DNA from: Oscillospiraceae bacterium
GTDB taxonomy: Bacteria; Bacillota; Clostridia; UBA1212
Assembly: GCA_015069195.1 (NCBI GenBank)
Contig: SVJA01000001.1
Location: forward strand, 14,148-78,147
DNA: 64,000 nucleotides
Direction of reading: 5' to 3'
Shown piece by piece: positions 897 through 43,927 of this stretch; position 1 is the first letter of the stretch; each line of letters starts with the position of its first letter. The translations under genes were made by a program, and so were the position numbers. The notes under the pieces are model-generated. The model saw only the letters and a program-made list of their open reading frames with translations. It had not been told where the DNA came from and did no database searches.

Positions 897-2253
897 CCAC
901 CGCAACCGTCTCAATACCGTAATATTCAAAACATTTTACAGCACTTTCATCTATAACCTCTCCGCACACTACTACAGGCACGGCAGGGGGGCAATTTACG
1001 CTCGGAGCAGCCGATATTCTACCGACAGACTCTTTTACCGAAACTATTTCAAAAGGCGCCATAACTGCCTGTTTCAAGCTCATGCAAACCTTTGGCACAC
1101 ACAATCTCGGTATTTGATCACAAATACCGGGCTTTTTGTTAATTTCTGCAAATACATTCGTCAAATAATCAATACTTTCAACGCTGATTTGCGGTGTAAA
1201 CATCATTACAACAAAATCGGGATCCGAAAATTCACAAACAATATTTTTACTTTTTAAAATATCGGCAAAATCATTTCCTCTGTATCCGTAAGGCTTAGTT
1301 TTTAAAGTAAGTTTCAGCGGCTCACACCCGACCGTTTCATACCCTTTTGAATCAAGAAATTCCTTCAAAATTTTAACACGCTCTATTGTTTCCGAAAGTG
1401 CCGAAGAAAATTTATCAGAAAGATATTCATTCATCAAATCAAGAGATTGCAATATAAGATACGAAGGACTTGTAGAAGCAAACATTGACATCGCAAAAGA
1501 AGCATTTTTTACAAAGAATTCATCCGCATTTTTTGAAATATGCAAATATGCAGCTCCCGTAAGCGCCGGCAAAGTCTTATGAGCAGAATCACAACATAAG
1601 TCAGCACCTAAGTCTATAGGATGCAAAGACTTCGGCAAAAATTTAAGATATGCACCGTGTGCATTATCGACAAGAAGCAAAACTCCGCGACTCTTACATA
1701 CACGACTTATTTCTTCTATATCAGCAACATTTCCCAGATAGTCAGGGCTTGTTATATAAAGTGCAACCGGCTTAACTTCTGCAAGAACTCGGTCAAGTTC
1801 GTTCAAATCAAAATCATACGACAGTATATTCCCACCGGTTGAAAATATCCATTTAACATCAATATCAAGGAGCGCCGCGGCTGTGACAAATGTTTTGTGC
1901 GAATTACGCGGCGCGACAATACAATTATTTTTGCCGTGCAATGCGGCGTATTGACTTGTCATAAAAAGCATTGCACGAATACAAAGTGACGACCCTTCCG
2001 TTGAAAAAAGTGTTGCTCCGCTTCCGAACAAATCCGATGTTATTTTTTCGCTACGGCGTATTATCCCGTTTGAAACGTCGCAGCCAGGAACCGCAGTTGT
2101 ATCATAAAGTACATCCGCACCGTCAATTTCAGTTATATCAAAGCTTTCAGGGCCGACAAAAGACACACCCTTGTGACCGGGCATATGAAGTCGAACAGTT
2201 TCACTATCAATGTACTCTTTTACAAAATCACATATCGGTGTCTTTGAATTCAT
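889..2253 (-). CDS. PLP-dependent Orn/Lys/Arg decarboxylase family protein (B. subtilis YaaO-like)
   Basis: HMPGHKG motif and DSAHKTLPALTG (PLP-lysine region) typical of the OKR_DC_1 fold. Its start ATG directly abuts the stop of the upstream rSAM gene (TAAATG), with a GGAGAGG RBS inside that gene's 3' end. Confidence 0.85.
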   Translation of the reverse strand: MNSKTPICDFVKEYIDSETVRLHMPGHKGVSFVGPESFDITEIDGADVLYDTTAVPGCDVSNGIIRRSEKITSDLFGSGATLFSTEGSSLCIRAMLFMTSQYAALHGKNNCIVAPRNSHKTFVTAAALLDIDVKWIFSTGGNILSYDFDLNELDRVLAEVKPVALYITSPDYLGNVADIEEISRVCKSRGVLLLVDNAHGAYLKFLPKSLHPIDLGADLCCDSAHKTLPALTGAAYLHISKNADEFFVKNASFAMSMFASTSPSYLILQSLDLMNEYLSDKFSSALSETIERVKILKEFLDSKGYETVGCEPLKLTLKTKPYGYRGNDFADILKSKNIVCEFSDPDFVVMMFTPQISVESIDYLTNVFAEINKKPGICDQIPRLCVPKVCMSLKQAVMAPFEIVSVKESVGRISAAPSVNCPPAVPVVVCGEVIDESAVKCFEYYGIETVAVVK

Positions 2254-3636
2254 TTAATCCTCTCCGAGAGCCTTTGATACTTCAAGATATATTGCACATT
2301 CCATACGCTTTTTGAACAACTCACAGCCCTGAAAATAAATGCCTTTAACAGAACCTGTGGCGTGATATGAGTTTGCCGCACAACCGCCGGAGCAATAAAG
2401 CTTTGCCCAGCAATCGTTACACTCTTCTCTAGCGTAAACATTGCACGAAGCAAATTCATTTTGAATCTCTTTGTTTGTAACACCCATCCAGATGTCACCC
2501 AAGCGGAACTTTTCATCTCCTACGAATTGGTGACAGGGATAAAGGTCACCCCAAGGGGTAACTGCCATATACTCTGTACCGGAACCGCAACCGGAAAGAC
2601 GCTTATATATACAAGGGCCGCCTGTGAGGTCTATCATATAGTGATAGAAAGTAAAAGGATCGCCTTCGCGATATTTTTTGAGCATAAGTTCCGCAAGCTT
2701 TTCGTACTGCTCTTTTACGATAGCCATATCGTCTTCTGTAAGAGCAGAGGGATCATCCGGAGGGCAAACGACAGGCTCCATACTGAGCTCTTTGAAACCG
2801 AGCTCAAGCATTTTTTCTATATCTTTAAGAAAGTCGGGATTTGCGTGTGTGAATGTACCGCGCATATAGTAATTTTTACCGCCGCGTGCCGATACAAGCT
2901 GTTGGAATTTAGGAACAATACGCTCCCAGCTGCCGTTGCCGGCATAGTCAACACGGAATCTGTCATGAACTTCTTTTCTGCCGTCAAGACTCAAAACAAC
3001 ATTACTCATTTCACGGTTAGCAAAGTCGATAACATCATCATCTATCAAAACACCGTTTGTGGTAAGAGTAAATCTGAAATTCTTTCCTGCCGCCTTTTCA
3101 ACAGAACGCGCATACTCTACGAGTTTCTTTACCACGTCAAAATTCATAAGCGGTTCTCCGCCGAAGAAGTCAACTTCTAAGTTTCTTCTGCTGCCGGAAT
3201 TCTCAATCAAAAAGTCAAGTGCTCTCTTACCGACTTCGAAGCTCATAAGACCTCTTTCACCGGAATATTTTCCCTGACTTGCAAAGCAGTAAGAACAGTT
3301 GAGATTACAGGTATGCGCTATATGAAGGCACAGCGCCTTTACGACATTTGCACTTCTCTCTTTAAGTTCGCCTGCAAGATGTCTGTGTGTGTCTTCTTTA
3401 AATAATTTTCCGCAAGCTTTAAGCTCACCTATCTGATCATAACATTCGGAAAGTTCATCTTGCGTCACACCTTCGGTATCGCCAAACTTTTCGAGCATCG
3501 CAGCGATTATCTCTTCGCGGCTATAATCCTCGTACATTCCGATCATCTCATACGCAATCTCGTCTACTGCATGGACAGAACCCGAATTTATATCAAGTAC
3601 AATATTCTGCCCGCCCATTTTATATCTATGTATCAT
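2254..3636 (-). CDS. Radical SAM/SPASM maturase of the SCIFF peptide (thioether-forming, CteB-like)
   Basis: CNLNCSYC (CxxxCxxC) radical-SAM motif and a C-terminal Cys-rich SPASM region (CGSG...CHQ...CNDCWAKLYCSGGC). N-terminus MIHRYKMGGQNIVLDINSGSVHAVDE is typical of SCIFF maturases. The precursor is encoded immediately upstream. Confidence 0.9.
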   Translation of the reverse strand: MIHRYKMGGQNIVLDINSGSVHAVDEIAYEMIGMYEDYSREEIIAAMLEKFGDTEGVTQDELSECYDQIGELKACGKLFKEDTHRHLAGELKERSANVVKALCLHIAHTCNLNCSYCFASQGKYSGERGLMSFEVGKRALDFLIENSGSRRNLEVDFFGGEPLMNFDVVKKLVEYARSVEKAAGKNFRFTLTTNGVLIDDDVIDFANREMSNVVLSLDGRKEVHDRFRVDYAGNGSWERIVPKFQQLVSARGGKNYYMRGTFTHANPDFLKDIEKMLELGFKELSMEPVVCPPDDPSALTEDDMAIVKEQYEKLAELMLKKYREGDPFTFYHYMIDLTGGPCIYKRLSGCGSGTEYMAVTPWGDLYPCHQFVGDEKFRLGDIWMGVTNKEIQNEFASCNVYAREECNDCWAKLYCSGGCAANSYHATGSVKGIYFQGCELFKKRMECAIYLEVSKALGED

Positions 3637-3673
3637 AATTCTTATTTCCTCAATTCATCGATGTTTATACCGT

Positions 3674-3708
3674 AAAAATGCCGCCTTTTTTCAAAAAGGC
3701 GGCATTTT
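3674..3708 (-). terminator. Palindromic hairpin with a short T-tract between the SCIFF precursor and its maturase (likely partial terminator/attenuator)
   Basis: aaaatgccgcctttttt-c-aaaaaaggcggcatttt is a near-perfect palindrome followed on the minus strand by TTTT. It is then followed by a GAGGAAAT RBS for the maturase. Confidence 0.5.
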
Positions 3709-3727
3709 ATAGCAATATAGTGATTTA

Positions 3728-3877
3728 TTACTTCGCCTTAGCGTTTTCGCAAGCCTGGTTAGCAACACCGCAGCTTGTCTTGCAAGCTGACTGGCAGGAA
3801 GTCTGGCACTCGCCGCATCCGCCGTTTTTTGCACTCTTGCACAAATCACGAGTTTCTAAAGTTTTGATGTGTTTCAT
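3728..3877 (-). CDS. SCIFF (six-cysteines-in-forty-five) ribosomal peptide precursor, 49 aa
   Basis: Hand translation of the minus strand gives MKHIKTLETRDLCKSAKNGGCGECQTSCQSACKTSCGVANQACENAKAK. The GGCGECQTSCQSACKTSC core is the SCIFF signature. GGAGG lies 9 nt upstream of this ATG; an in-frame ATG two codons further up (3883) has poor spacing. Missing from the ORF track because it is under 60 aa. Confidence 0.85.
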   Translation of the reverse strand: MKHIKTLETRDLCKSAKNGGCGECQTSCQSACKTSCGVANQACENAKAK

Positions 3878-4033
3878 ATCCATCAACCTCCAAGATAATT
3901 CAAAATTATGTGATTATACTATCACAACGAGGCTTTTAAGTCAAACAAATAGTAATAAGTTGTCTTTATTATGAATAACTTTTTCTGTGTAAAGGCAATA
4001 CTTTACTATATAAACATTTCACGGGGTGATTTT

Positions 4034-32575: not shown

Positions 32576-32633
32576 AATAATCCCTCACATTAAAAAAATT
32601 ATCAATGCATATAATATCATTATTGTTTCGGTT

Positions 32634-33605
32634 TTACAATACCGATAATCGCTTTAAAAAGCCGGAAATTCCTCTTTTAAACCATTCTTTTTTCACTGTC
32701 ATCTCAGAAAGTAATTCTTCATATACCGGAGTGTTCGCTGCATATTCCCACCAGATTTTCGCGTTTTCATTTATTTCCCTGCGAACAGAAAACAAAACTT
32801 GGTATTCCGCATTACCTGCTGTAAGTTCATATTTTTCAATTTCATCATCCGTAAAGCATAAATCCCATGGTTTATACGGAGTAATTTCTCCGGAATAATG
32901 AATTAGTTTTACATCGTCCATTCTTATATTTCCAAGCACATCGGGACAATTTTTTAGATAATATCCTAACCGGAAATTGTAAACCGAAGACGTTATCAGT
33001 ATTGAATTTTTTGCATAAATGTAATTCAGTAAACCTTGATCAAAAAGATAATCTATTCCGGCAGACTGTATAAACTTTTGCAAACACTCCGTATCCGGGA
33101 AAATTGCACGCATCTTTTTGCAGTTCAAAAGCAAAACACCGCTGTTAAAGTATTTTCCTCGCAAAGCATCCTTTTTATCCCAATTTTCTCTTAAAAAATC
33201 AGCATTGCAAAAGGCATCGTCTCTTGCACACGCGAGCAAAGAATACTCTTTCAAATCAGTATCATAAAAGTCTTTCAGACTGCCGTTACAAATAATATCG
33301 GTATCAAGATATAAAATTTTTTCAACATCTTCCGGAAGATATAAATGAGCAAATAAACGCAGATAGACTTCACACGAAAAAGGCTCCGCTGTTCTCAATC
33401 CCGATAAAATATCTTTTTCGGCTTTCAAAAAAGTAATCTCGGTACCTTCTGCCATGCAAAAATCTTTAAGCAACAAAATTTCATTTTCTTTAAGGTCACA
33501 ATATAAAACATATATACGGACATCCGGATTGTGACATAATATTGATTTTATCAAGACTACCGACTGCCTTGCAAAAGCAGAATTTACGGTTATCAGAATA
33601 TTCAA
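32634..33605 (-). CDS. Glycosyltransferase family 8 protein
   Basis: YLDTDIIC (DxD) and YFNSGVLLLN motifs of GT8 (LgtC/GspA-like). Confidence 0.75.
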   Translation of the reverse strand: MNILITVNSAFARQSVVLIKSILCHNPDVRIYVLYCDLKENEILLLKDFCMAEGTEITFLKAEKDILSGLRTAEPFSCEVYLRLFAHLYLPEDVEKILYLDTDIICNGSLKDFYDTDLKEYSLLACARDDAFCNADFLRENWDKKDALRGKYFNSGVLLLNCKKMRAIFPDTECLQKFIQSAGIDYLFDQGLLNYIYAKNSILITSSVYNFRLGYYLKNCPDVLGNIRMDDVKLIHYSGEITPYKPWDLCFTDDEIEKYELTAGNAEYQVLFSVRREINENAKIWWEYAANTPVYEELLSEMTVKKEWFKRGISGFLKRLSVL

Positions 33606-34168
33606 ACTCTGTTTTCCTCTCTTATTTTTATCAATTCATCAAGTGTTCTGGGGGTAAAATCTATACCCTTTAACATACAACCGACATTGAACATATTTGA
33701 TGTAATACCTTCACAGTAAAGTTCATCAGACCACTTCAATATATGATGATACTCGTGTGATTTGTGCACATGTCCGTAAACCATATACCCTCCACGATGT
33801 TGATGAGGATAAAACATAATAGGATAATGTGACACAAAAACAGGTTTTCCGTTATCAATAATATCATAGAAACCTTCTATAGAAATAAAACATGTTTTAA
33901 ATTCATCGGAAGTCATTTTATCATGATTCCCGACAGCAAGATGTTTCCTGCCGTTTAACTGCTTTACGATTTCAAATGCCTTATCCTGAGTCGCAGTCTC
34001 CCACATAATATCTCCGGCTATATACACATCGTCATCATCCTTAACTACACTGTTCCATCGTGCAACAACCAGCTTATTTCTTTTTTCGACACTTTCAACA
34101 TCAAGTTTGTCTATCACTAAAACTCTTTCGAAGCCAAAATGTAAGTCTGCTATGTAATAGTTCATCAA
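33602..34168 (-). CDS. Metallophosphoesterase (calcineurin-like)
   Basis: YYIADLHFG...AGDIMW...GNHD...GHVH motif series. Confidence 0.7.
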   Translation of the reverse strand: MMNYYIADLHFGFERVLVIDKLDVESVEKRNKLVVARWNSVVKDDDDVYIAGDIMWETATQDKAFEIVKQLNGRKHLAVGNHDKMTSDEFKTCFISIEGFYDIIDNGKPVFVSHYPIMFYPHQHRGGYMVYGHVHKSHEYHHILKWSDELYCEGITSNMFNVGCMLKGIDFTPRTLDELIKIREENRV

Positions 34169-34995
34169 ATACCACTTTCTTTCATATCAAAAACTGCAAA
34201 AGCTCTGCCGTTCTCATCAAATTTTACCGTCATTGAATAATTGTATATTTCTTCCGTTTTTGTAAGCAACTCATCCGATACCGCAGCAAACCGATGAAGT
34301 TTGTGATTTGTATCAATAAGGGCAGCTTCGGCATCCTGTAATGCAAACAAGTGATTAGGATTATGTGTTGTAAATATCACTGTTTTACCATTTTCCGAAA
34401 GCCATTTTATCAATCGCAAAAATTCTGTCTGATACTCAGGGTCAAGTGCCGCCATCGGCTCATCAAACACATATAGTTTTGCATTTTTCACTATAGATTG
34501 CGCAATAAACACTCGCTGGACTTCTCCGCCGGAAAGACACTCGAGTGTTTTCTCGGCAAGATGCTTTATACCCATCTGTTCGAGAGCATCATACGCGACG
34601 ATATAATCATCCGGAGAAAACTTTGAAAATAATTTCTTTTTATAAGGAGTTCTACCCATTACAACCGTCTGTATAACAGAAACATTGACCGGAACAATCT
34701 GTTGCGGCACATATCCGATTGATTTAGAAACATCACTGTACGGTATATCACAAACTTTTTCTCCGAATAATTCTATTTTCGAAGCATTCTTTTTCCCCGG
34801 ATACAATATCTCATGTATCAATGTTGTTTTTCCGCTACCGTTAGGACCAAGTATGCAAAGAATTCTTCCCTCTTCGAGTTCGAATGAAATATTATCGAGA
34901 AGCGATTCTTTTTTGTTGTATGAAAAACTGAGTTTATCTACCGAAAGTGCTTTCATTTTGCTTTTTCCGCCTTTCCCGAGATAATACACACGCAA
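34165..34995 (-). CDS. ABC transporter ATP-binding protein (FecE/BtuD type)
   Basis: Walker A GPNGSGKTT, signature LSGGEVQR, Walker B LYVFDEP. The start is probably the internal MKALSVDKLSF. Confidence 0.85.
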   Translation of the reverse strand: MRVYYLGKGGKSKMKALSVDKLSFSYNKKESLLDNISFELEEGRILCILGPNGSGKTTLIHEILYPGKKNASKIELFGEKVCDIPYSDVSKSIGYVPQQIVPVNVSVIQTVVMGRTPYKKKLFSKFSPDDYIVAYDALEQMGIKHLAEKTLECLSGGEVQRVFIAQSIVKNAKLYVFDEPMAALDPEYQTEFLRLIKWLSENGKTVIFTTHNPNHLFALQDAEAALIDTNHKLHRFAAVSDELLTKTEEIYNYSMTVKFDENGRAFAVFDMKESGI

Positions 34996-35963
34996 AAAAC
35001 TATCAATCCCGCTGCACCCGTCATAATAGATATGGGAATCTCCGATGTTGTGGCTGCTCTTGCTATATCATCAGACACAAGTAAAAACAATGCTCCGAGC
35101 ATAGCGGATATGCTAAGATTATCAACTATGCTTCCGCTCTTTGTAAGTTCTGATGACGCAAGCGGAATTATCAAACTAATCCAGCTTATCACGCCGCAAA
35201 CAGCAGTAGTCAAAGCAACAAGCAACGACGAAAGCACAACTGCCGTCATTTTCTCAACTTTCACCCTGACACCAAGAAGATTTGCCTGCTCACCGAAAAC
35301 AAGAGCACCTATGTGCCAACGCATAACATACAAACCTGCAATAATTACAATTATAAACGGAACAATTATATAGATATCTTCCCACGAAACCTTTGCAAGC
35401 GAACCAAGCTCCCAGTATACAATACTTTCAAGCTGACCGTTTTCAGAATCCGCAAGATATTTTAAAAGTCCCAGACCGCTTCTTGCAAATCCTGCAACTA
35501 TGATTCCCGAAAGAAGTAAACTGTCGCGGCGTTTCAGAATTTTTGACACAATTCCCGTGAGCGCAAACGCACCTATACTGAACAAAAAAGCAACAACAAA
35601 ATTCATACGCGCAGAAAGTCCCAAGACAATGGCAACAGATGCACCGCATGCTGCGGAACTGCTTACACCGAGCAAATCAGGAGAAACCATATTGTTTGAA
35701 AACACGGTTTGATAAACAGCACCCGACACGGCAAGTGCCGCACCGCACACCATTGCCGCAACAACTCTGACCAACCTTATATTCAGCAAAACTGCTTCTG
35801 TACTTGAATCATATTCGCTTCCTGAAATCTTGGCTGACACGTATTGAAACAAATCACTAGGAGTTATTTTGAAGTTACCTATACACAGAGAAATCGCAGC
35901 AGTCAATATTATTAAAATTATTAAAGAAACAAAAACTATATTTTTTCGTTTGTTAAAAAGCAT
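34953..35963 (-). CDS. ABC transporter permease, FecCD/BtuC family
   Basis: About 9-10 TM helices and the Gly-rich FecCD signature region. Confidence 0.85.
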   Translation of the reverse strand: MLFNKRKNIVFVSLIILIILTAAISLCIGNFKITPSDLFQYVSAKISGSEYDSSTEAVLLNIRLVRVVAAMVCGAALAVSGAVYQTVFSNNMVSPDLLGVSSSAACGASVAIVLGLSARMNFVVAFLFSIGAFALTGIVSKILKRRDSLLLSGIIVAGFARSGLGLLKYLADSENGQLESIVYWELGSLAKVSWEDIYIIVPFIIVIIAGLYVMRWHIGALVFGEQANLLGVRVKVEKMTAVVLSSLLVALTTAVCGVISWISLIIPLASSELTKSGSIVDNLSISAMLGALFLLVSDDIARAATTSEIPISIMTGAAGLIVFCVCIISGKAEKAK

Positions 35964-35965
35964 AT

Positions 35966-37015
35966 TTAATCCTTAATAAAAAGCATTTTCTTAACTTCGG
36001 TTTCACTTATCTCCCAACCGAATATATCCTTGTACAAATCAATTGAATAATTAACAATGTCAATATCTTGAGTTGCATTCTGCGCAAACATTTCCGAAAG
36101 CCACAAAATACCTATAGATGTCTCAGCACCGGGTCTTAAACAAGGACGAAGTATGCCTATGGGAGAATAAATAATCTTATTCTCTTTTACAGCAGTAAGA
36201 TTTTTGAGAACAGGATCATTTACAAGCTCTGTGTAAGCCTGCTCTGCAAGATATCCGTCGATAACAATATAATCAGGATTACTTTGCATCAATAATTCCG
36301 CATTTACGTTTACATACATTCCCTTGCCGGAAGTAATCTGTTTTGCGCCGCACATTGCAAAAAGTTTATTTGCAAAAGTTTCTTCTCCTTGCGTCTGATA
36401 CGGCGTTGTCTGTGTCGTAGCTGCAATGCAGTAAACGGTCGGAGTACTCGTATTCTTTTCAGCATTTGCTTTCGCTGTCTTTTCAGCATTTATGATGCTA
36501 TCAGAGATTTTCCGACCTCTTACAAGGGCCTCTCCGCCGAAAATTTCACCGATAAGCACAAAACTTCTGGCAAGATTTTCTGTGGTGTCATAGTTCATAA
36601 CAATGCTTACAAGACCTGCATTTGTATAAGTATCAGCCTCCGCCTGATTGGACGCAAAAAAAACATTTACGCCGGCAGCAAGCATTTCTTCTGCCGAAAC
36701 TTTATCACCGTCGGTAAGTTTTATATCATCCGTTCCCGTAAAAAGTTCCGCAAATCTGTCTGTATGTCCGCTTTCAAAAGAAGCAGGAGCAATTTTTATA
36801 CGTTCTGCACCGGCAAGCATTACTACCTGGCTTGTAATCCAACCGGAATTTGCGGTCGCATAGATTTCTCCCAAAGGAATATCTACAGTATTTCCGCCAA
36901 GGTCCGTTACAGTTTTTTTTTCTTCTTGCTTCTCTTTTACAACGGTGCAACCAAACATTGAAGCAAAAACCAGCACAGAAAGCAATACACAAAAGATTGT
37001 CTTAAAACTCTTCAT
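35966..37015 (-). CDS. ABC transporter substrate-binding lipoprotein (cluster A, FecB/BtuF-like)
   Basis: Lipobox FGCTVV. Two-lobe periplasmic-binding fold typical of iron-chelate/cobalamin-type binding proteins. Confidence 0.75.
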   Translation of the reverse strand: MKSFKTIFCVLLSVLVFASMFGCTVVKEKQEEKKTVTDLGGNTVDIPLGEIYATANSGWITSQVVMLAGAERIKIAPASFESGHTDRFAELFTGTDDIKLTDGDKVSAEEMLAAGVNVFFASNQAEADTYTNAGLVSIVMNYDTTENLARSFVLIGEIFGGEALVRGRKISDSIINAEKTAKANAEKNTSTPTVYCIAATTQTTPYQTQGEETFANKLFAMCGAKQITSGKGMYVNVNAELLMQSNPDYIVIDGYLAEQAYTELVNDPVLKNLTAVKENKIIYSPIGILRPCLRPGAETSIGILWLSEMFAQNATQDIDIVNYSIDLYKDIFGWEISETEVKKMLFIKD

Positions 37016-37017
37016 TT

Positions 37018-37977
37018 TTAAGTACCTTTCTTCATTTTATAATAAGTTTCTTTTATACTATCTATTTCTTTTTCACTGTAATCAAGTCTTTTAAAATCAT
37101 TCTCATCAAAAGTCAAAAAAGGATCTCCGAATCCGACATACTTTTTCGCATAAACTTTTTCCCCGCATATAAGTGCCGCCGCAATCCTGTGGGTGCCGTT
37201 TATAATTCCTCCCGACTCTGAAAGCGGTACAAAGTGTCTCTTATCAAAACCATTTTCTTTCATCGAAAGAAGTAATTTTCTGAAGCTGCCAATGAATTCT
37301 TCTTCCCCTTTTTTACCGCCATAATCCGAAAAATAAGAACATGTCGTATACGGTCTTACATGCTCGGAAAAATCATTCATCGATGCCGAAAGCTTTATAT
37401 ACATATCAACACCTATGTCACGCGCTCCGCTTAATATCTCCATTCCTGCCATGTAACGAATAACTATATCGAAACGACTCTCACTTAAAAACTCGTGAGG
37501 ATCATACAGCAAAAGTTCCTCGTCACAAATAACCTCATCCGTGTATTTTATGTTGTTCCAAGGCACGCAATTGGTGACACTATCTGCGCCTATATCATTG
37601 TAAAGCATATATGTATCAATGCCGGCAATATTGTAAGATTCTGCAAGTCTTTTGTAATAACCGATATTTCTTTTTCCGGATACTACCACAGCATCAAAAT
37701 TATATTCAGGCACTTTTTCACACGACGCTATCGGAAAACCGCAAAGACTGAAAAAATTATATTTTTTCTCAACCCAAAGGGTAAGCTTATCGCCGATACC
37801 TTTCTGTACCATTAAGGAATATGCTGTGCGGCTTTCTTCGGTGACACCTACAAGCAAAAACTTTGTTCCTATTTCAGAAAGCCGAACAAATTCCGACACA
37901 CTTATATTTTTTTTGTCATTCGATATAGAATCTGTTCCGGGCAACATTATCAGAAAGCTCCTTTCTGATTTTTTCAA
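37018..37977 (-). CDS. Hypothetical protein (319 aa), glycan-cluster associated
   Basis: No confident family. The C-terminal GGIINGTHRIAAAL motif is reminiscent of GxHRxxA in ParB/sulfiredoxin-fold proteins (weak). Overlaps the acetyltransferase gene by about 60 nt. Confidence 0.45.
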   Translation of the reverse strand: MKKSERSFLIMLPGTDSISNDKKNISVSEFVRLSEIGTKFLLVGVTEESRTAYSLMVQKGIGDKLTLWVEKKYNFFSLCGFPIASCEKVPEYNFDAVVVSGKRNIGYYKRLAESYNIAGIDTYMLYNDIGADSVTNCVPWNNIKYTDEVICDEELLLYDPHEFLSESRFDIVIRYMAGMEILSGARDIGVDMYIKLSASMNDFSEHVRPYTTCSYFSDYGGKKGEEEFIGSFRKLLLSMKENGFDKRHFVPLSESGGIINGTHRIAAALICGEKVYAKKYVGFGDPFLTFDENDFKRLDYSEKEIDSIKETYYKMKKGT

Positions 37978-38728
37978 GTTTGATTATAGAAGATTCCGTT
38001 CCGTCAAACAGTTCATCAACAAAGTTTTCCGCAAGAACGGTACAATCTTTTTTATACATATACTTTTCATTCAATCCTTTTCTGTCTTCAACGAAACGCT
38101 CTTCTCGCGCCGCATCAAAATTATGTGCGGCAAGATCGTAAAAATATATATCAGACTTTACCCTACGTACAGGATTTCCGGCATATACACAGTTTGATTT
38201 TACTTTCTTACCCGGAACCACGCTGCCTCCGCCTATAACACTTCCCGAACCTATATGACTGCCTTTAAGTATCAAAGAATTCTGCCCTATCCACACATGT
38301 TCTCCCACAACTATACTTTTAGCAGAATTTACACGCTTTCTGTTAAGATCATATATAAGATGAGGATCGGAAGTATATAAATACACATCGAAGGAAAAAA
38401 GACACTCATCACCGATAACTATATGTTTTCTTTCCGTTGCATAGAGAGTAAGCCTCTCTTTAGGATTCACATAGTTGTTTTTTCCGAAGTATATTACCGA
38501 ATCATATCCGGTTCGCGCATCTATCGAAATCGGACTATTATTTTCATCAAAATACATAACCGAATTATCGCCCGTAAATCTTATACGCGAATTCAAAAAA
38601 TGCACGCCTTCGCAAAACAAAACATTATCTTTCCCGCTGAATGTAACAGTCGTATTTTCGGAAACATACTTACCGATAACCGTATTATTATTTTCATCCT
38701 TATAAACGTTATAATTATCGTGCATCAA
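37916..38728 (-). CDS. Left-handed beta-helix (hexapeptide-repeat) acyl/acetyltransferase
   Basis: VGEHVWIGQNSLILKGSHIGSGSVIGGGSVV hexapeptide repeats. Confidence 0.75.
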   Translation of the reverse strand: MMHDNYNVYKDENNNTVIGKYVSENTTVTFSGKDNVLFCEGVHFLNSRIRFTGDNSVMYFDENNSPISIDARTGYDSVIYFGKNNYVNPKERLTLYATERKHIVIGDECLFSFDVYLYTSDPHLIYDLNRKRVNSAKSIVVGEHVWIGQNSLILKGSHIGSGSVIGGGSVVPGKKVKSNCVYAGNPVRRVKSDIYFYDLAAHNFDAAREERFVEDRKGLNEKYMYKKDCTVLAENFVDELFDGTESSIIKLEKIRKELSDNVARNRFYIE

Positions 38729-38738
38729 TTCTCCACCG

Positions 38739-39599
38739 TTACCTTTCAGAATTGTTCAAAGTTTTCTTGTTCGGTTTAAATCTGTATAATTCTCCGGCAA
38801 TTGCAGTAAATAACGCATTGAACGGATAACTCTTCACCATTGCTTTCAGATATATATATTTTATTTTTCCGTCAAAATATATCTGCCATGGTTTTATATG
38901 TCTTACGTAGTGTATAACCGCAACATTTTTCTTTATATCGCGGTATTTTTCCCAATCAATTTTTTGTTCTGACATAACAATATAATTGTATTTTCTGTCA
39001 TCAATTCTTTTTATCTTTCCTGCAAAAGCAATGTTCATAACATCCTGATCGGAAAACCAAATTTTATCTTCATTCTTTTCATAAGTATCGAAAAGAAAAT
39101 TTTTTTCAAAGTCATTACGTATTTTCTTAAGATTAAACAAAATCACACCGGCATTAAAATAACATCCGCCGGTATCAAGCCCGAGTCTCTCTAAATGTTT
39201 CTTCTCGTTATTGCCCGGACAAGCAATTACATAGTTATCAGCGAAATCCATCTCATAGAACGGTTTCAAAGAATCCATTACGACTGTATCTATATCCATC
39301 CATACAGCCCTATCCTCATCGGGAAATATGTCCAAAAACATAAATCTGTAATATGTTTCTTCTGTAATCTGATGAATAAGCTTATATCCCTTAAGTCTTG
39401 AATTATCCGCCTTTATGAATCTGCATTCAAAATTATTCTTTTTCGCAAACTGCTCATATTTTTTTATATTTTCGTCACTTAATGACGAGTAAAGAACAGT
39501 AATACTAAAGTCTCCCCGATTTTTTTTCAGCAAAGAATCGGTAAAAACCTTAAGTCGCGGATAATACTTGTCATTTGATGCCGTAAAAATGTTTATCAT
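38739..39599 (-). CDS. Glycosyltransferase family 8 protein
   Basis: WMDIDTVV (DxD) and YFNAGVILFNLKK, the same GT8 signatures as in 32634..33605. Confidence 0.7.
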   Translation of the reverse strand: MINIFTASNDKYYPRLKVFTDSLLKKNRGDFSITVLYSSLSDENIKKYEQFAKKNNFECRFIKADNSRLKGYKLIHQITEETYYRFMFLDIFPDEDRAVWMDIDTVVMDSLKPFYEMDFADNYVIACPGNNEKKHLERLGLDTGGCYFNAGVILFNLKKIRNDFEKNFLFDTYEKNEDKIWFSDQDVMNIAFAGKIKRIDDRKYNYIVMSEQKIDWEKYRDIKKNVAVIHYVRHIKPWQIYFDGKIKYIYLKAMVKSYPFNALFTAIAGELYRFKPNKKTLNNSER

Positions 39600-39632
39600 T
39601 AATTGCCACCATCCAGTGTAACCTAAATTTCC

Positions 39633-40136
39633 TTAGTCTATATAAACAAATGAGATATGTTCACCGTTTTCATCCACATAATTACCGTCTTGCAGGTAGA
39701 CCGGTTTGTTGGTTCGCCAATCCACCATACTTGTTTTAAACGGAGGATTCGGTATATATTCATGGTACGTGGTACCATCACTACTAGGTTTAGGCACATT
39801 TTTCAGACGTTCAGATTCCAACTCCATATATACATCAGCCCATCTGGACGGAAACTTATCAATAAAAACCGCTTCAACTTCTTCAAAAATATCCTGTATC
39901 TCCGGATACTGAAACTTACGATACACATTATGACATTTTCTGTATAACGCTTCAGTCTTCGATGGATAATATTTAAAATAATCCTCTCCGTGTAGTCGTA
40001 TCCATTCTGTTTCATCCTGGTCAATATAGTAATTATTTGCCCATATCAACTCATAAAACAGCGACACCACAGGAAAATATGTTTCGTCATTCTGATGTCG
40101 GTCTACAAAATTCTGCAACCATCCCAAGTCTATCAT
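39633..40136 (-). CDS. Hypothetical protein (167 aa), first gene of the glycan operon
   Basis: Clean ORF with no recognisable motif, Trp/Tyr-rich. Confidence 0.45.
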   Translation of the reverse strand: MIDLGWLQNFVDRHQNDETYFPVVSLFYELIWANNYYIDQDETEWIRLHGEDYFKYYPSKTEALYRKCHNVYRKFQYPEIQDIFEEVEAVFIDKFPSRWADVYMELESERLKNVPKPSSDGTTYHEYIPNPPFKTSMVDWRTNKPVYLQDGNYVDENGEHISFVYID

Positions 40137-40166
40137 GTTATGCCCTCTGCTATCCGTTTATCATTA

Positions 40167-40196
40167 AAAGAAAAACCACGTTTTCAGGCGTGGTTT
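40167..40196 (-). terminator. Intrinsic terminator after clpP
   Basis: aaaccacg-ttttcagg-cgtggttt stem with a plus-strand A-run (minus-strand T-run) 9 nt after the clpP stop. Confidence 0.6.
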
Positions 40197-40204
40197 CAGA
40201 ATCA

Positions 40205-40807
40205 TTATTTTCTATCATTAATAACATTATCAATGAGTCCGTACTCTTTCGCTTCTTCAGCAAACATCCAGTTATTTCTCTCTGTATCCTGGGTAACTGT
40301 CTCAACATCTTTACCTGTATTCTGTGCAAGAATAGTATTAAGACGATCTTTTATACGGAGCATATGACGAGCCTCAATCTCCATATCAGATGCCTGACCT
40401 TCTACACCGCCGAGAACCTGATGTATCATAATCTGGCTGTTCTCAAGTGCAGAGCGCTTACCCTTTGTACCTGCGGCAAGCAAAAATGCACCCATACTGG
40501 CTGCCATACCGACGCAGACTGTATTAACGTCACACTTAAGGTGCTTTATCGTGTCATAAATACCAAAACCTGCTGACACAGAACCGCCCGGAGAATTTAT
40601 ATAAATGGTAATATCCTTATCCGGATCAACGGCCTCCAAGTAAAGCAACTGTGAAATGACAGTACATGCAAGGTCATCATTTATCTCATTAAACAATAAT
40701 ATAATTCTGTCTTTTAACAATCTTGAGAAAAGATCGTAGCCTTTTTCGCCGTTTCCTTCTCTCTCGTAGAAACTCGGATTTATAATCATAGCGATAACTT
40801 CCTCCAA
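40205..40807 (-). CDS. clpP: ATP-dependent Clp protease proteolytic subunit
   Basis: Canonical ClpP: GMAASMGAF (Ser), IMIHQ (His), with a conserved Asp. clpX is not adjacent. Confidence 0.9.
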
Positions 40808-40881
40808 TATTTTTATTTTTTAGAGTATACCGCAATCGCATTTAAAAATCAAACAATATTACCGATATTTCCCAAGAGTTT

Positions 40882-41973
40882 TCAATCGTTTTTGTACAGT
40901 TTTTCTATTAAAGATAGGTTTTCCTTCAACCTTATATCGCCTGGTTCTTTTTCATACGCCTTCCGGGCATTTTCAAGAGATTTTTCATAATTTTTTGTTT
41001 GATAGTAAGCTATCGCAAGCAAATCATATACCCTGCTTCCCCAAGCAAACGGTTCGCATATGTATGAAAGGTTCTTCTCTGTAACTTTTAACGCTTGTTC
41101 ACAGAAAAATATTACTCCGTACCAATTTTTTTGTTTGTACATTAAGTTTGCCGCCTCCATATAAGGTTCGCGCAAATGAGGCGCCTCTGCTATTGCTTTC
41201 AAAAGCCAATTAAAAGCTTCTTTTTCGTCACCCTTTGCCATCAACGCCCGGCTTATAAACCGCATCGAAGCACACCGTTCATCCTTCCACACGGCTCTCG
41301 GCATATTTAAATGTCGCTCCAATGTTTCAATGCATTTGTCCCACTGCCTGTAAAACATATATTCCCTTCCGAGGTAATGCATATTTCTGTCATCATCAGG
41401 AGCCTCTCTAACCGACATTTCAAGGAGCGGTAAATACTGACTTCTCGGTTTCGTTTCATCGGCATAATGATTAAGTTGCACACCGGGAACAACTCTTTTA
41501 ATCAAAGGTTCGCTACCGGTATAAGAAAGGACTTCATGAACCGGATGCGTCCAGCAAAACTCCCCGTAACTGTGAGCCTTCTCAGAGTAAAACACATGTC
41601 CTTCTGAGCCGTCAGGATTAAAATTCCAAGTGTAACGATAAGACGCCTGTTTTGTATTGTCCGTCCAATACATATCAAAAAGTTTGCGCCACCCGGGTTC
41701 AAAGAGTTCATCAAGATCAGTACATATACAAATACCGGTATCAGTAGGAATAAGTTTCATTGATTCATTCCGCGCGACATCAAATCTCCACGGTTTTATT
41801 ATTTTTTGCTTGGTTATTATCCCGGATTCTTTCAATCGTTCGTAAGTTCCGTCTGTAGAACCTGTATCAAGAACACAAATATAATCAGCCTCCGACATAG
41901 ATTCAATCCATCGGTCAACAAATTTAATTTCATCTTTACATATCGCATAAACGCATATTTTATATTTACCCAT
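40882..41973 (-). CDS. GT2-family glycosyltransferase with C-terminal TPR repeats
   Basis: N-terminal YAICKDE...VLDTGSTDGT...DLDE (GT-A fold, DxD). C-terminal TPR-like helices. Lies immediately downstream of the collagen-like gene. Confidence 0.75.
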   Translation of the reverse strand: MGKYKICVYAICKDEIKFVDRWIESMSEADYICVLDTGSTDGTYERLKESGIITKQKIIKPWRFDVARNESMKLIPTDTGICICTDLDELFEPGWRKLFDMYWTDNTKQASYRYTWNFNPDGSEGHVFYSEKAHSYGEFCWTHPVHEVLSYTGSEPLIKRVVPGVQLNHYADETKPRSQYLPLLEMSVREAPDDDRNMHYLGREYMFYRQWDKCIETLERHLNMPRAVWKDERCASMRFISRALMAKGDEKEAFNWLLKAIAEAPHLREPYMEAANLMYKQKNWYGVIFFCEQALKVTEKNLSYICEPFAWGSRVYDLLAIAYYQTKNYEKSLENARKAYEKEPGDIRLKENLSLIEKLYKND

Positions 41974-41985
41974 AACCCTCCTCCG

Positions 41986-42023
41986 AAAAAGCCGCCTTAA
42001 CGAATTGCTTCAACTAAGGCGGC
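41986..42023 (-). terminator. Intrinsic terminator after the collagen-like gene, immediately followed by the GT2-TPR RBS (probably partial)
   Basis: gccgcctta...taaggcggc: a 9-bp stem with a plus-strand A5 (minus-strand U-run), then GGAGGAGGG and the ATG of the GT2 gene. Confidence 0.55.
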
Positions 42024-42058
42024 AAAGTTTAAATATTTAATTTTTCAAATAAAACCGA

Positions 42059-43165
<1,107 letters not shown>

Positions 43166-43257
43166 TTATTATTTTTAACAAAAATTGTTTACAAAACATT
43201 TTAGTTGTGATATACTCCGCTTTGTTGTGATTTCCTAAAAGCACGACTTATGTAAAT

Positions 43258-43332
43258 CGGGGTGTAGCTCAGTTTGGCTAGAGTACTTGCTTGGGGTGCA
43301 AGGGGTCGTCGGTTCAAGTCCGGTCACTCCGA
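43258..43332 (+). tRNA. tRNA-Pro (anticodon GGG)
   Basis: Manual fold: acceptor CGGGGTG/CACTCCG; D-arm GCTC..GAGT; anticodon stem CTTGC/GCAAG with loop TTGGGGT (GGG at 43293-43295, G37); T-arm GTCGG-TTCAAGT-CCGGT; discriminator A; CCA not encoded. Confidence 0.85.
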
Positions 43333-43339
43333 TAAAAAA

Positions 43340-43377
43340 GAAACCGAAGAGTTTAAAGCTCTTCGGTTTCTTTTTTT
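43340..43377 (+). terminator. Intrinsic terminator after tRNA-Pro
   Basis: gaaaccgaagag-tttaaag-ctcttcggtttc followed by T7. Confidence 0.7.
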
Positions 43378-43471
43378 AATCAGATCAATTTAACTTACTA
43401 AAACTAAAGGCTGTGCCTTATTGAATTTCTTTTATCTAAATGTTAGATAAGTAGGAATTTGTCTCTCTGGA

Positions 43472-43927
43472 TTAGGCCTCCGTCATTATTCTCCAAAACA
43501 TCTTTTCAGCAATTACATAAGTACTGTATTTTCCGTTAGTTGAAATCGGTTTTTCTTCCGTATAATTTATGGGATTATACCCAGCCCAATCCGCCCATAC
43601 TATCAGCTTGTCATCACGAGTTTTACCAAGTAGGTTGCTATGAAAATTCAAATATGCACCAAAAATGTCGCAGAAATAATTATCCTCCCAGCCAACAATA
43701 TTACATTTTCTTACTCCTGTAAACCACAGTTCAATAGGTTTATTACACTGACTATGTAATATCATTTCAATACTATGCTCAAGCAATCCGCCATTTGCCA
43801 TTGCACCCTTATCATTAACAGATGCTCCGCTATGATAGTTTATTGATACTATACAGCTATCGTGAAAGTCGCTATATTCTTTCATCAAATTTTCGATATC
43901 ATTTTCATTTTTTATTTCATTCCACAT
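43472..43927 (-). CDS. Hypothetical protein (151 aa), orphan gene next to the tRNA
   Basis: AAGGAG RBS. No recognisable motif. Size and composition are compatible with immunity-protein-like orphan genes (speculative). Confidence 0.45.
   Translation of the reverse strand: MWNEIKNENDIENLMKEYSDFHDSCIVSINYHSGASVNDKGAMANGGLLEHSIEMILHSQCNKPIELWFTGVRKCNIVGWEDNYFCDIFGAYLNFHSNLLGKTRDDKLIVWADWAGYNPINYTEEKPISTNGKYSTYVIAEKMFWRIMTEA

Follow-up and report, generated by a model that had tools for sequence, protein, structure and literature searches.

Positions 32641-40162 of the analysed stretch of 64,000 nucleotides (the window, to which all coordinates refer) form, on the minus strand, one replaceable operon-like cassette of nine genes and ~7.5 kb, in the order h167, GT8a, acetyltransferase, X, SBP, permease, ATPase, phosphoesterase, GT8b. 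Comparison with other loci shows that it contains a conserved, co-inherited core: the glycosyltransferase GT8a and a full type II ABC importer dependent on a substrate-binding protein (SBP), usually accompanied by the unannotated protein X. The acetyltransferase, the phosphoesterase and h167 are additions particular to the lineage.

The limits of the cassette were set by nucleotide alignment to the closest reference genome, the sister genome L017. Homology ends at ~40162, just past the clpP terminator hairpin, and restarts at ~32641, at the GT8b stop codon; the cassette thus starts ~10 nt downstream of the hairpin. In place of h167 to GT8b, L017 carries 3.06 kb of unrelated DNA with upp, a prsW-like gene and a transglutaminase-like gene, and its clpP (96% identity) is kept beside them. 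An earlier sequence-only reading of this stretch had drawn the unit wider, with GT2-TPR and clpP inside it; both lie outside, and clpP stays in L017 when the cassette is replaced. The cassette has a GC content of 37.1%, versus 40.9% for the remainder of the window, and its proteins diverge faster than those of the flanks (in L010, 60% identity for X and 63% for GT8b versus 97% for PfkA). No flanking repeats and no integrase were found. The cassette resembles capsule- or O-antigen-type variable loci in being present, absent or replaced between conserved flanks, in its lower GC and fast-diverging interior, and in lacking an integrase and terminal repeats; it differs from them in having an importer and in being without a polymerase, flippase, initiating transferase or exporter.

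The eleven minus-strand genes of the sequence-only reading hold up in coordinates, order and domains. The first cassette gene, h167 (39633-40136), encodes a 167-aa protein of no family, with no match in Pfam, NCBIfam, PHROGs or PADLOC and an orthologue only in L010 (55% identity). It is followed by GT8a (38739-39599) and by a hexapeptide-repeat sugar O-acetyltransferase-like protein (37916-38728; PF00132 at 2.8e-10), whose nearest NCBIfam models are maltose and galactoside O-acetyltransferases and which is found, among the module loci, only in the window and L010. X spans 37018-37947 (309 aa, ATG 37947) or extends to 37977 (319 aa, TTG), and the importer comprises the SBP (35966-37015), the permease (34953-35963) and the ATPase (34165-34956, 263 aa, ATG 34956; longest ORF to 34995). 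The small metallophosphoesterase (33602-34165, ATG 34165; longest ORF to 34168) matches PF12850 weakly and phrog_547 ‘phosphoesterase’ at 4e-32; the motifs DxH, GD, GNHD and GHxH, read from the sequence, are intact. Its only orthologue is in L010, the metallophosphoesterase of L005 being unrelated. GT8b (32634-33605; PF01501 at 9e-31), a second LgtC-like GT8, is the last gene.

The tight packing also stood: from h167 to GT8b, the longest ORFs are separated by gaps or overlaps of 33, 10, -62, 2, 2, -43, -4 and -4 nt. Starts supported by ribosome-binding sites (acetyltransferase ATG 38725, X ATG 37947, ATPase ATG 34956, phosphoesterase ATG 34165) change these values to 33, 13, -32, 2, 2, -4, -1 and -4 nt; they are the starts called on metagenome copies, and that of the ATPase was chosen by its ribosome-binding site and an ATGA overlap. 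All junctions are thus overlapping or ≤33 nt, with ribosome-binding sites, and none from h167 to GT8b has a terminator-like site. As had been proposed, clpP has its own terminator, a hairpin then a U-run (40197-40172, minus strand), which lies in the L017-conserved flank outside the cassette and is kept in L010 and L017; a promoter-like site for clpP is found at 40852-40824. A further hairpin and U-run stand at the end of the collagen-like gene, just before GT2-TPR. Since the collagen-like gene and clpP are each closed by a terminator hairpin, three transcription units are likely. No clear promoter was found upstream of h167 in the window, where the cassette may be expressed by read-through of the clpP terminator; in L003, L005, L007 and L009, canonical promoters of the TTGACA/TATAAT type stand just upstream of GT8a. 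The upstream region has no cobalamin or metal riboswitch and no Fur, MntR, Zur, PerR or DtxR-like operator.

The core, GT8a-(X)-SBP-permease-ATPase, was found in ~ten non-identical loci in ~eight different neighbourhoods, each in an uncultured member of the Clostridia from gut or rumen, with L005 and L009 sharing part of their upstream context. The readable SBP relatives (84, 73, 65, 66, 57, 56, 53, 52, 49 and 45% identity) directly follow GT8a or X in all readable loci except L006, which is too short upstream; the permease follows the SBP wherever the contig reaches, and the ATPase then follows in all longer loci. Wherever the DNA reaches far enough, a GT8a orthologue (44-83% identity) stands immediately before X or the SBP. 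X orthologues are present in L003, L004, L007, L009, L010, L016 and L098; two contexts, L005 and L013, lack X. The core is nearly always followed by another glycosyltransferase gene, either GT8b or a GT2; GT8b orthologues come after the ATPase in L003 (45%), L016 (40%) and L010 (63%). The flanks include clpP and pfkA, larA and ppdK, TIR/Band_7, TraG/Sel1, PGA_cap and Bac_transf, and ADP-ribosylglycohydrolase-GT2 and HipA. Bac_transf, GT2 and LicD genes come after the module in L007; in L003 the module stands alone between housekeeping genes, without glycan-assembly genes, and the flanking larA, the gene of a nickel-pincer-cofactor enzyme, lies outside it and adjoins an opposite-strand Opp/Nik-like ABC system. 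Glycan export or lipid-carrier genes are absent with the module in most loci.

When 5.8 billion proteins were searched through a word index, just 32 relatives of the SBP, 14 of X and 27 close ones of GT8a came back, for the most part on shared contigs; beyond its 27 proteins, the GT8a clade falls to ≤37% identity. Divergence is correlated between GT8a and the permease (r = 0.99), GT8a and the SBP (r = 0.95), and X and the SBP (r = 0.90), and no component other than GT8a and the transporter is strictly invariant. Recurrence of the GT8/ABC core in ~ten loci, with component identities that rise and fall together, shows that the arrangement is not due to chance. Nowhere in the compared genomes did the ABC genes and the glycosyltransferase genes prove to be independent units with variable neighbours. 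The linkage of the SBP to GT8a or X is kept across neighbourhoods, from 84% down to 45% SBP identity, so the module is functionally coherent and undescribed, which supports the sequence-only reading to that extent.

GT8a is an LgtC-like retaining glycosyltransferase (PF01501 at 1.4e-38, full length; best PDB matches 3tzt and LgtC) in which the DxD motif ‘DID’ and ‘H..KPW’ can be read. X, conserved directly upstream of the SBP, has no Pfam or PDB sequence match; its AF2 model (pLDDT 88) has two domains, a Rossmann-like N-domain and an alpha/beta C-domain, and K212, G233, H253 and R254 are invariant. Among its 1217 remote homologues are fusions to GT8, GT25, GT2, FkbM and Capsule_synth domains, the last four joined to the X C-domain and the first forming a Rosetta-stone X+GT8 fusion (P0054), and distant homologues adjoin GT8 genes in large glycan clusters. 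These fusions and neighbours assign GT8a and X to glycan chemistry. Comparison of X with the ParB/Srx fold gave a weak lead (E 0.014-0.05, against approximate sequences).

The permease, ATPase and SBP are all closest to MolBC-A of Haemophilus influenzae (HI1470/HI1471/HI1472), a small-substrate type II importer. The permease matches PF01032 at 9e-62 (positions 1-310 of 311), and its best solved homologue is HI1471/MolB (5.4e-48), ahead of the haem permease BhuU (3.6e-30) and BtuC (8e-25). The ATPase (PF00005 at 8e-26; best PDB match HI1470/MolC, 2.5e-32) has a readable Walker A ‘GPNGSGKT’, signature ‘LSGGE’ and Walker B ‘VFDEP’; motifs are intact in the transporter as in the enzymes. The SBP (PF01497, Peripla_BP_2) is a class III lipoprotein whose lipobox Cys23 is invariant across 25 homologues; its profile matches 4ovk at 1.8e-25, and the nearest folds to its AF2 model (pLDDT 89) are 4ovk, 4hn9, 4pag and MolA 3psa. 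Among characterised proteins, those nearest in fold bind molybdate (3psa), Ni-(His)2 (H. pylori CeuE) or iron (YiuA), and the invariant SBP residues include His84, Glu109, Glu126, Asp248, Asp253 and Glu298. The systems are alike in having a class III SBP, a FecCD-family permease and an ATPase, and MolA ranks high among the fold matches to the SBP (TM 0.71). The SBP here, however, is a Gram-positive lipoprotein only ~16% identical to MolA and nearer the uncharacterised 4ovk and 4hn9; its surroundings show neither genes nor regulation related to molybdenum; and the importer sits between glycosyltransferase genes, an arrangement for which we found no description in the literature for any type II importer, MolBC-A or other. 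The iron-siderophore/B12-type assignment of the sequence-only reading thus stands only at the family level: the PF01497, PF01032 and PF00005 families and the type II fold are shared with FecBCDE, BtuFCD and Fhu-type importers, whereas the similarity of the permease to BtuC, FhuB and haem permeases is far weaker than to MolB, haem, siderophore and B12 SBPs score lower (TM 0.53-0.60), and neither a cobalamin riboswitch nor a Fur-like box accompanies the genes.

Our best reading, with a probability of about 0.45, is import coupled to cytoplasmic glycan synthesis. Outside the cell, the lipoprotein SBP would capture a small solute, probably an anion or a metal complex, which the permease and ATPase would pump into the cytoplasm; there the GT8a/X pathway, with lineage-specific tailoring enzymes, would use it, as acceptor/primer or as decoration precursor, to build or decorate a glycoconjugate. 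Where GT8a comes first, the cassette would be expressed from a housekeeping-type promoter, and it may be spread or exchanged by recombination in its flanks, like surface-glycan loci. Uptake of a compound for glycan synthesis remains the leading idea, in line with the uptake of a glycan-decoration precursor first proposed. Such a system would follow the scheme of import, activation and attachment to a glycan known from the choline (lic) pathway of Streptococcus pneumoniae and Haemophilus, where genes for an importer likewise accompany those for the enzymes linking the imported moiety to a glycoconjugate; the Bac_transf, GT2 and LicD genes of L007 add to the likeness. The transporter class differs (LicB is a secondary carrier), the transferase here is a GT8 rather than LicD, and there is no recognisable kinase or cytidylyltransferase. 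Indeed, no recognisable kinase or nucleotidyltransferase for precursor activation, unless it is X, is present in the cassette, which speaks against the best reading, as do the absence of X from L005 and L013, the scarcity of export and lipid-carrier genes, the small number of loci compared and the lack of a clear promoter before h167 in the window. To our knowledge, characterised class III SBP/FecCD systems carry metals, metal chelates, tetrapyrroles and oxyanions, and none carries a glycan building block.

The main rival, plausible though on the whole unlikely, is that the MolBC-like importer supplies a metal ion, complex or oxyanion (Mn2+, a Ni/Co complex, molybdate/tungstate) to metal-dependent enzymes of the cassette, in the manner of the nickel/cobalt transporters of urease and nitrile-hydratase operons. 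The closeness of all three transporter parts to MolBC-A, the ligands of the nearest SBP folds and the invariant SBP residues all favour it, as does the recurrence of partners from metal-dependent families (DxD GT8, metallophosphoesterase, ADP-ribosylglycohydrolase, HD). Characterised members of the transporter family all carry metal species (PMC4245157), and the related SgtA prefers Mn2+ (PMC7157674). Yet a molybdo-, nickel- or cobalt-enzyme gene lies within the module in none of the loci, larA of L003 being outside it; none of the metal-responsive operators or riboswitches sought is present upstream; and a strict one-to-one pairing with just one GT8 clade would more usually point to a substrate link. 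Moreover, the dedicated transporters inside enzyme operons that we know of serve the scarce metals Ni, Co, Mo and W, and we know of none for the Mn2+/Mg2+ of DxD glycosyltransferases. We consider it highly improbable that there is no functional link at all and that an ordinary metal-uptake operon is carried inside a mobile glycosyltransferase island. The cassette is indeed accessory and in variable regions, some of them defence- or mobile-like with TraG, TIR, CHAT and HipA neighbours, and the evidence is comparative throughout; fixed gene order, overlapping stop and start codons, conservation to 45% identity across ~eight neighbourhoods, and small co-extensive clades with correlated divergence all argue otherwise.

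Two further alternatives seem to us rather improbable. In one, a foreign small molecule (a xenosiderophore, metallophore or other chelate) would be imported and glycosylated in the cytoplasm for trapping, detoxification or re-use. Strict invariance confined to GT8a and the transporter would be expected if the transporter delivers the acceptor, the tailoring genes differ by lineage as in natural-product clusters, the L003 module lacks glycan-assembly genes, and GT8 enzymes acting on small acceptors exist, such as plant galactinol synthase. The salmochelin cluster iroA likewise combines a glycosyltransferase with chelate-transport genes; its IroB, a GT1 C-glycosyltransferase, glucosylates enterobactin before export. 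The iro cluster, however, has an exporter, a receptor and esterases, where the cassette has only an importer, a GT8 enzyme and no iron signals. Genes for handling a chelate (exporter, esterase, reductase) are lacking here, no iron-responsive operator was found, the transporter belongs with the small-substrate MolBC importers and not with siderophore systems, and relatives of X and GT8 occur in bona fide polysaccharide clusters, with X-type domains fused to polysaccharide glycosyltransferases. In the other, the second idea of the sequence-only reading, everything from GT2-TPR to GT8b would be one maturation module for a BclA-type collagen-like spore-surface glycoprotein, with GT8a, GT8b and the acetyltransferase extending an O-GlcNAc added by an SgtA-like enzyme. 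The collagen-like protein (42059-43123, minus strand) has GPT repeats and a BclA_C-like C-terminus, and the adjacent GT2-TPR (40882-41973, minus strand; 363 aa) has the GT-A+TPR architecture of Clostridioides difficile SgtA (358 aa, C-terminal TPR), which O-GlcNAcylates Thr in the BclA3 repeats; the enzymes for the further BclA3 capping sugars are unknown in that species (PMC7157674). The genes are co-directional within 10 kb, an arrangement also seen in L010, and spore-surface glycans are made in the cytoplasm, which fits the lack of flippase and exporter genes. The likeness is nevertheless limited to 40882-43123, with the glycosyltransferase gene downstream here and sgtA upstream of bclA3 in C. 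difficile, and the ABC/GT8 cassette lies outside such a unit in other genomes: the other ~8 contexts have no collagen-like or SgtA-like gene in the DNA on either side (≤10 kb, as the contig allowed), and clpP is in only one of those loci, 4 kb away. Terminator hairpins intervene, L017 swaps the cassette out and keeps clpP, module promoters elsewhere are of the housekeeping rather than the sporulation type, and the importer would be left unexplained. The tie to the collagen-like protein made by the sequence-only reading is therefore lineage-specific; these comparisons show that the collagen-like gene and GT2-TPR form a separate unit of the BclA3/SgtA type, and that the ClpP paralogue (40205-40789/40807, minus strand) is likewise a mere resident neighbour.

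The same pairing of importer and dedicated glycosyltransferase recurs in ~ten unrelated settings, and it is therefore a real and previously undescribed functional unit.

The limits of the importer-bearing unit follow from comparison with locus L017, the closest cassette-free reference, whose PfkA, MutS2, and ClpP are 92%, 89%, and 96% identical to those of the window. Nucleotide homology between the two loci stops just past the clpP terminator hairpin (∼40162) and restarts at the stop codon of GT8b (∼32641). The nine minus-strand genes between these breakpoints, from h167 to GT8b, therefore form exactly one replaceable 7.5-kb cassette; clpP, which L017 has without the cassette, is a neighbour resident at the site. 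Between clpP and pfkA, the L017 site (960–4023 of that locus, versus 32641–40162 of the window) carries upp, then the gene of a membrane protein resembling PrsW, then that of a transglutaminase-like protein; the 64-kb window contains no homologue of any of the three. The 248 nt 5′ of clpP in L017 are likewise unrelated to the GT2-TPR gene, so clpP lies between two variable regions. The sequence-only reading had treated the whole of 32634–41973 (−) as one glycan-modification operon. An ORF map and scans with Pfam and NCBIfam recovered all eleven of its genes, in the minus-strand order GT2-TPR, clpP, h167 (a 167-aa orphan), GT8a, hexapeptide acetyltransferase, X (an orphan of ∼310 aa), Peripla_BP_2 lipoprotein (the substrate-binding protein, SBP), FecCD permease, ABC ATPase, small metallophosphoesterase (MPE), and GT8b; membership of GT2-TPR and clpP in the unit was not borne out, since clpP has its own terminator and stays in L017 when the cassette is missing.

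Scanning species-representative genomes with the flanking PfkA yielded 80 loci, L017 the closest among them, and the cassette is carried by none of the other 79. It does occur at the same site in the near relative L010, where PfkA is 97% identical to that of the window and divergence is much greater in the cassette proteins (X 60%, h167 55%, GT8b 63%, and ATPase 67% identity). Its GC content is 37.1%, compared to 40.9% for the rest of the window; no flanking repeats surround it, and domain scans recognised no integrase or transposase gene within it. Given this replacement between conserved flanks, faster divergence, and lack of repeats or recombinase genes of those kinds, the cassette behaves like a variable surface-glycan locus that is exchanged by recombination in its flanks. 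A tRNA-Pro(GGG) gene at 43257–43333 (+), with the collagen-like gene on one side and a 151-aa orphan (43472–43927; no family in any library) on the other, was considered as an island attachment site and rejected, because it lies beyond the collagen-like gene, outside the breakpoints, and no flanking repeats accompany it. The tRNA is followed by a GC-rich hairpin (43335–43400) that could terminate transcription both ways.

The spacings of the sequence-only reading are reproduced when the longest ORFs are taken. With starts that bear ribosome-binding sites, the intervals from h167 to GT8b are 33, 13, −32, 2, 2, −4, −1, and −4 nt, and the same starts are called on metagenome copies of the window's locus. 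The junctions between h167 and GT8b are free of terminator-like sites, and a hairpin with U-run ends both the collagen-like gene and clpP. We saw no clear promoter before h167 in the window; canonical −35/−10 promoters lie directly 5′ of GT8a in L003, L005, L007, and L009, four of the related loci described below. The gap between GT8b and pfkA (32576–32640) is only 58 nt, lacks a hairpin, and contains two promoter-like sites; being so short and hairpin-free, it could allow some read-through transcription from the cassette into pfkA.

Upstream of the cassette, the collagen-like protein matches PF01391 (2.2e-27), with GPT repeats, and reaches 32.2 bits for BclA_C, below the 38-bit cut-off; its N-terminus is Cys-rich. 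The adjoining GT2-TPR protein, of 363 aa, has an N-terminal GT2 part and C-terminal TPR repeats. This is the layout of Clostridioides difficile BclA3/SgtA, in which the collagen repeats receive O-GlcNAc on Thr from SgtA, a 358-aa GT-A plus TPR enzyme (PMC7157674). The pair at 40882–43123 (−) thus resembles a spore-surface glycoprotein unit of the BclA3/SgtA type, with predicted glycosylation of the collagen-like protein. GT2-TPR also matches phrog_13126 (‘beta-1,4-glycosyltransferase’, moron/AMG) at 2.7e-109, and a scan of viral contigs found no relative. The clpP paralogue (40205–40789 (−)), with no clpX adjacent, encodes a Ser98-His123-Asn172 triad in which Asn replaces the catalytic Asp; the Asn is kept in L010 and L017, and the ClpP near the L009 module has Asp. 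The same impaired triad is found in Listeria monocytogenes ClpP1, a subunit without activity of its own that functions only in hetero-complexes of ClpP1 with ClpP2 (PMC9257651).

A word-indexed search of 5.8 billion proteins retrieved only 32 relatives of the SBP, at 91–45% identity. Genomic context was read for ten non-identical relatives, one of which (L006) is a 1.9-kb fragment with part of the SBP and permease genes only. At all nine others, a GT8a orthologue or X lies directly 5′ of the SBP gene; the permease gene follows wherever the contig reaches, and the ATPase gene is next in all longer loci (L098 and L015 end earlier). The core GT8a-X-SBP-permease-ATPase stands between larA and ppdK, with GT8b at its 3′ end, in L003; in L007 and L008 it follows PGA_cap and precedes Bac_transf, GT2, LicD, and GT2. 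The same core in L004 and L009 is followed by a paralogue of the X C-terminal half, a GT8/GT2 fusion, GT2, GT2-DUF1919, an epimerase, and UDP-glucose dehydrogenase. X is missing in L005 (TraG, Sel1-like, metallophosphoesterase, HAD, GT8a-SBP-permease-ATPase-GT2) and in L013–L015 (ADP-ribosylglycohydrolase, GT2, GT8a-SBP-permease-ATPase, HipA_C). L016 reads X-SBP-permease-ATPase-GT8b from a contig that begins at X, and L098 reads GT8a-X-SBP on a contig that stops inside the SBP gene. Genes for the collagen-like protein, GT2-TPR, acetyltransferase, h167, or an orthologous phosphoesterase occur in no module locus other than L010.

The GT8a clade comprises 27 proteins at 44–100% identity, with the next matches at ≤37%, and the X clade 14; most members of both share contigs with the SBP matches. 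Identity to the window proteins co-varies across loci (r = 0.99 for GT8a and permease, 0.95 for GT8a and SBP, and 0.90 for X and SBP). The loci read nowhere show the ABC and glycosyltransferase genes as independent units with variable neighbours, and the association proposed from the window alone is to that extent upheld. Taken with the conserved order, co-extensive clades, and correlated identities, this makes the GT8a-(X)-SBP-permease-ATPase core a co-inherited module. The window comes from a Ruminococcaceae/Oscillospiraceae MAG. The evidence is all comparative and covers about ten loci, whose hosts are uncultured Clostridia of gut or rumen, with part of the upstream context common to L005 and L009; on this footing it shows an accessory, exchangeable module that couples a predicted MolBC-like importer with GT8a and usually with X and a second glycosyltransferase, and a cassette independent of the collagen/SgtA-like unit and of clpP. 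The SBP family had no match among GTDB species representatives, IMG/VR, or PLSDB plasmids and one short match in JGI metagenomes, so that it is rare and not evidently phage- or plasmid-borne. Literature searches brought up neither a GT8 and FecCD association nor a glycosyltransferase operon with a type II importer inside it; each part is of a known family, and the arrangement is apparently undescribed.

Several modules have surroundings resembling mobile elements or defence islands (L005 4891–7358, L009 3388–7930, L004 1873–5524, and L013 4972–5862). L005 and L009 both encode a TraG/VirD4-type coupling protein and homologous Sel1-like small proteins (39% identity), to which h167 proved to have no similarity when tried as a relative of these genes 5′ of GT8a. 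Further neighbours are ClpP and CHAT-TPR (L009), TIR-TPR with Band_7 (L004), and a HipA_C kinase (L013). A defence system, an idea raised by the TIR, CHAT, HipA, and TraG neighbours, was rejected, as the window proteins have no PADLOC matches.

The permease matches PF01032 at 9.4e-62 over profile positions 1–310 of 311, i.e. as a full-length FecCD protein. The SBP (PF01497) has a signal peptide and a lipobox Cys23 that is invariant in 25 homologues; its AF2 model (pLDDT 89), in which a long helix (residues 161–185) joins two alpha/beta lobes, matches class III SBPs with Foldseek probability 1.0. The ATPase (PF00005, 8e-26) contains GPNGSGKT (Walker A), LSGGE (signature), and VFDEP (Walker B). 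Together these predict an intact type II (BtuCD/FecCD-type) SBP-dependent ABC system transporting inward. The best solved homologue of the permease is HI1471 (MolB, 5.4e-48), ahead of a haem permease (3.6e-30) and BtuC (about 1e-24), and that of the ATPase is HI1470 (MolC, 2.5e-32). The folds nearest the SBP model are the uncharacterised 4ovk, 4hn9, and 4pag, then MolA, TM0189, Helicobacter pylori CeuE (Ni-His2), and YiuA, with TM 0.65–0.74 for the whole set and TMq 0.71–0.74 for the MolA/4ovk group; profile search agrees with this ranking. MolA itself (3psa) is rank 6 by fold (TM 0.71, 16% identity) and 3e-7 by profile, 4ovk and 4hn9 being closer. The haem and siderophore binders FeuA, HmuT, IsdE, ShuT, and BhuT reach TMq 0.53–0.60. 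An ‘iron-chelate/B12-type’ designation for this importer is therefore right at Pfam level but not below it, and ‘iron complex transport’ labels on the cassette genes are probably wrong. Cobamide, F420, or haem cargo, suggested by NCBIfam match lists, is not favoured, the similarity to MolB, MolC, and the MolA group being much stronger.

The prototype of small-substrate type II importers is MolBC-A, whose affinity for molybdate and tungstate is low (PMC4245157, PMC4031551); the module differs in lacking molybdenum genes or regulation. No molybdoenzyme, Moco, or ModE gene occurs in the module loci, and in no locus is a molybdenum, nickel, or cobalamin enzyme part of the module; the larA flanking the L003 module goes with another, Opp/Nik-like transporter. 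The modules are preceded by no riboswitch, cobalamin and Moco types included, and by no other RNA element, the only Rfam element being a tRNA. Fur, MntR, Zur, PerR, and DtxR boxes gave nothing convincing before any module; the best Fur-box matches have 3–7 mismatches of 14 to the consensus, in AT-rich DNA.

GT8a and GT8b (PF01501 at 1.4e-38 and 8.9e-31; PDB matches 3tzt and LgtC) contain the DxD motif (DID/DTD) and the C-terminal His motif H..KPW, and are, as judged by these matches, LgtC-like retaining GT8 glycosyltransferases. MPE (33602–34165 (−)) is barely recognised by Pfam (E 4e-4) and matches phage family phrog_547 ‘phosphoesterase’ at 4e-32; its catalytic motifs are all intact. Sequence searches of Pfam and the PDB gave no match for X. 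In its model (pLDDT 88), an N-domain of Rossmann-like fold, with a weak match to PF22674 (C2185-like_N), precedes an alpha/beta C-domain; Foldseek found nothing in the PDB below E 0.02, and an X profile gave a weak PDB match to the N-domain only. Profile search of 1.8 billion representative proteins returned 1217 relatives at E ≤ 0.001. The C-domain (37018–37560 (−)) is fused in these to GT8 (P0054), GT25, GT2, GT32-like, FkbM methyltransferase, and Capsule_synth domains, and distant free-standing homologues adjoin GT8 genes in large glycan clusters without an ABC importer (L012 and L097). These fusions and importer-free clusters argue that X and GT8 are a glycan-synthesis pair older than the tie to the importer. 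The C-domain is a widespread domain without a Pfam model, with members including proteins P0047–P0191. The paralogue of the C-terminal half alone (276 aa, 36% identity) lies 3′ of the ATPase gene at L004 11226–12056 and L009 12910–13740; the GT8/GT2 fusion, GT2s, epimerase, and UDP-glucose dehydrogenase come after it, and neither a flippase nor an initiating transferase is visible there. Residues K212, G233, H253, and R254 of X are invariant. The ParB/Srx core can be aligned to the motif P-L-x..G-x-I-N-G-x-H-R-x-A-A-A-L only at E 0.014–0.05; a resemblance of the X core to ParB/Srx is thus a lead, not a result. By hhalign, X shows no relation to the GT2+DUF1919 fusion protein of L004 or to HAD_SAK_2 neighbours.

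The reading we prefer, at slightly below even odds (roughly 0.45), is that the importer brings a small solute into the cytoplasm, where the GT8a/X pathway would use it as acceptor or decoration precursor for a glycoconjugate made there. A lic-type import-activate-decorate pathway needs a kinase and a nucleotidyltransferase; the cassette has no recognised domain of either kind for the imported moiety, and X is unannotated. A bolder version, which we hold only tentatively, has a MolBC-type importer recruited to feed a non-classical organic or inorganic anion into the GT8 pathway, so that the anion would end up in, or prime, a glycoconjugate; X would then be the first member of a family of glycan-modifying enzymes that is widespread and unannotated, possibly ParB/Srx-like and NTP-dependent.

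The main competitor, possible though clearly less probable than solute supply, is that the importer feeds a metal to the cassette enzymes as cofactor: every cargo known for transporters of this family is a metal species, and the enzymes that accompany the importer depend on metals. To our knowledge, the established substrates of type II (BtuCD/FecCD) importers are limited to metal chelates, haem, and cobalamin, plus one debated molybdate case. Maturation of the collagen-like glycoprotein, one of two roles suggested by the sequence-only reading, is improbable; it could hold locally but does not describe the module's conserved function, as the collagen/GT2-TPR pair accompanies the cassette only in L010 (homologues are absent from L003, L004, L005, L007, L009, L013, and L016), and L017 keeps clpP with no cassette. 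We give about as little weight to glycosylation of an imported chelate foreign to the cell, and hardly any to mere hitch-hiking of the importer beside glycosyltransferase genes whose divergence keeps step with its own.

Annotators should not read the collagen/SgtA-like pair and clpP as part of the same operon as the cassette. The >1000 unannotated relatives of the X C-domain, fused to many glycosyltransferase families, offer a handle on X. The constant tie of one importer clade to one glycosyltransferase clade suggests either a new class of cargo or the first metal importer dedicated to glycan synthesis. If the bolder version, with its non-classical anion, is true, type II importers would acquire a physiological role and a class of substrate new to them, and gut Clostridia would be the setting of a newly defined mobile ‘import-and-glycosylate’ cassette.
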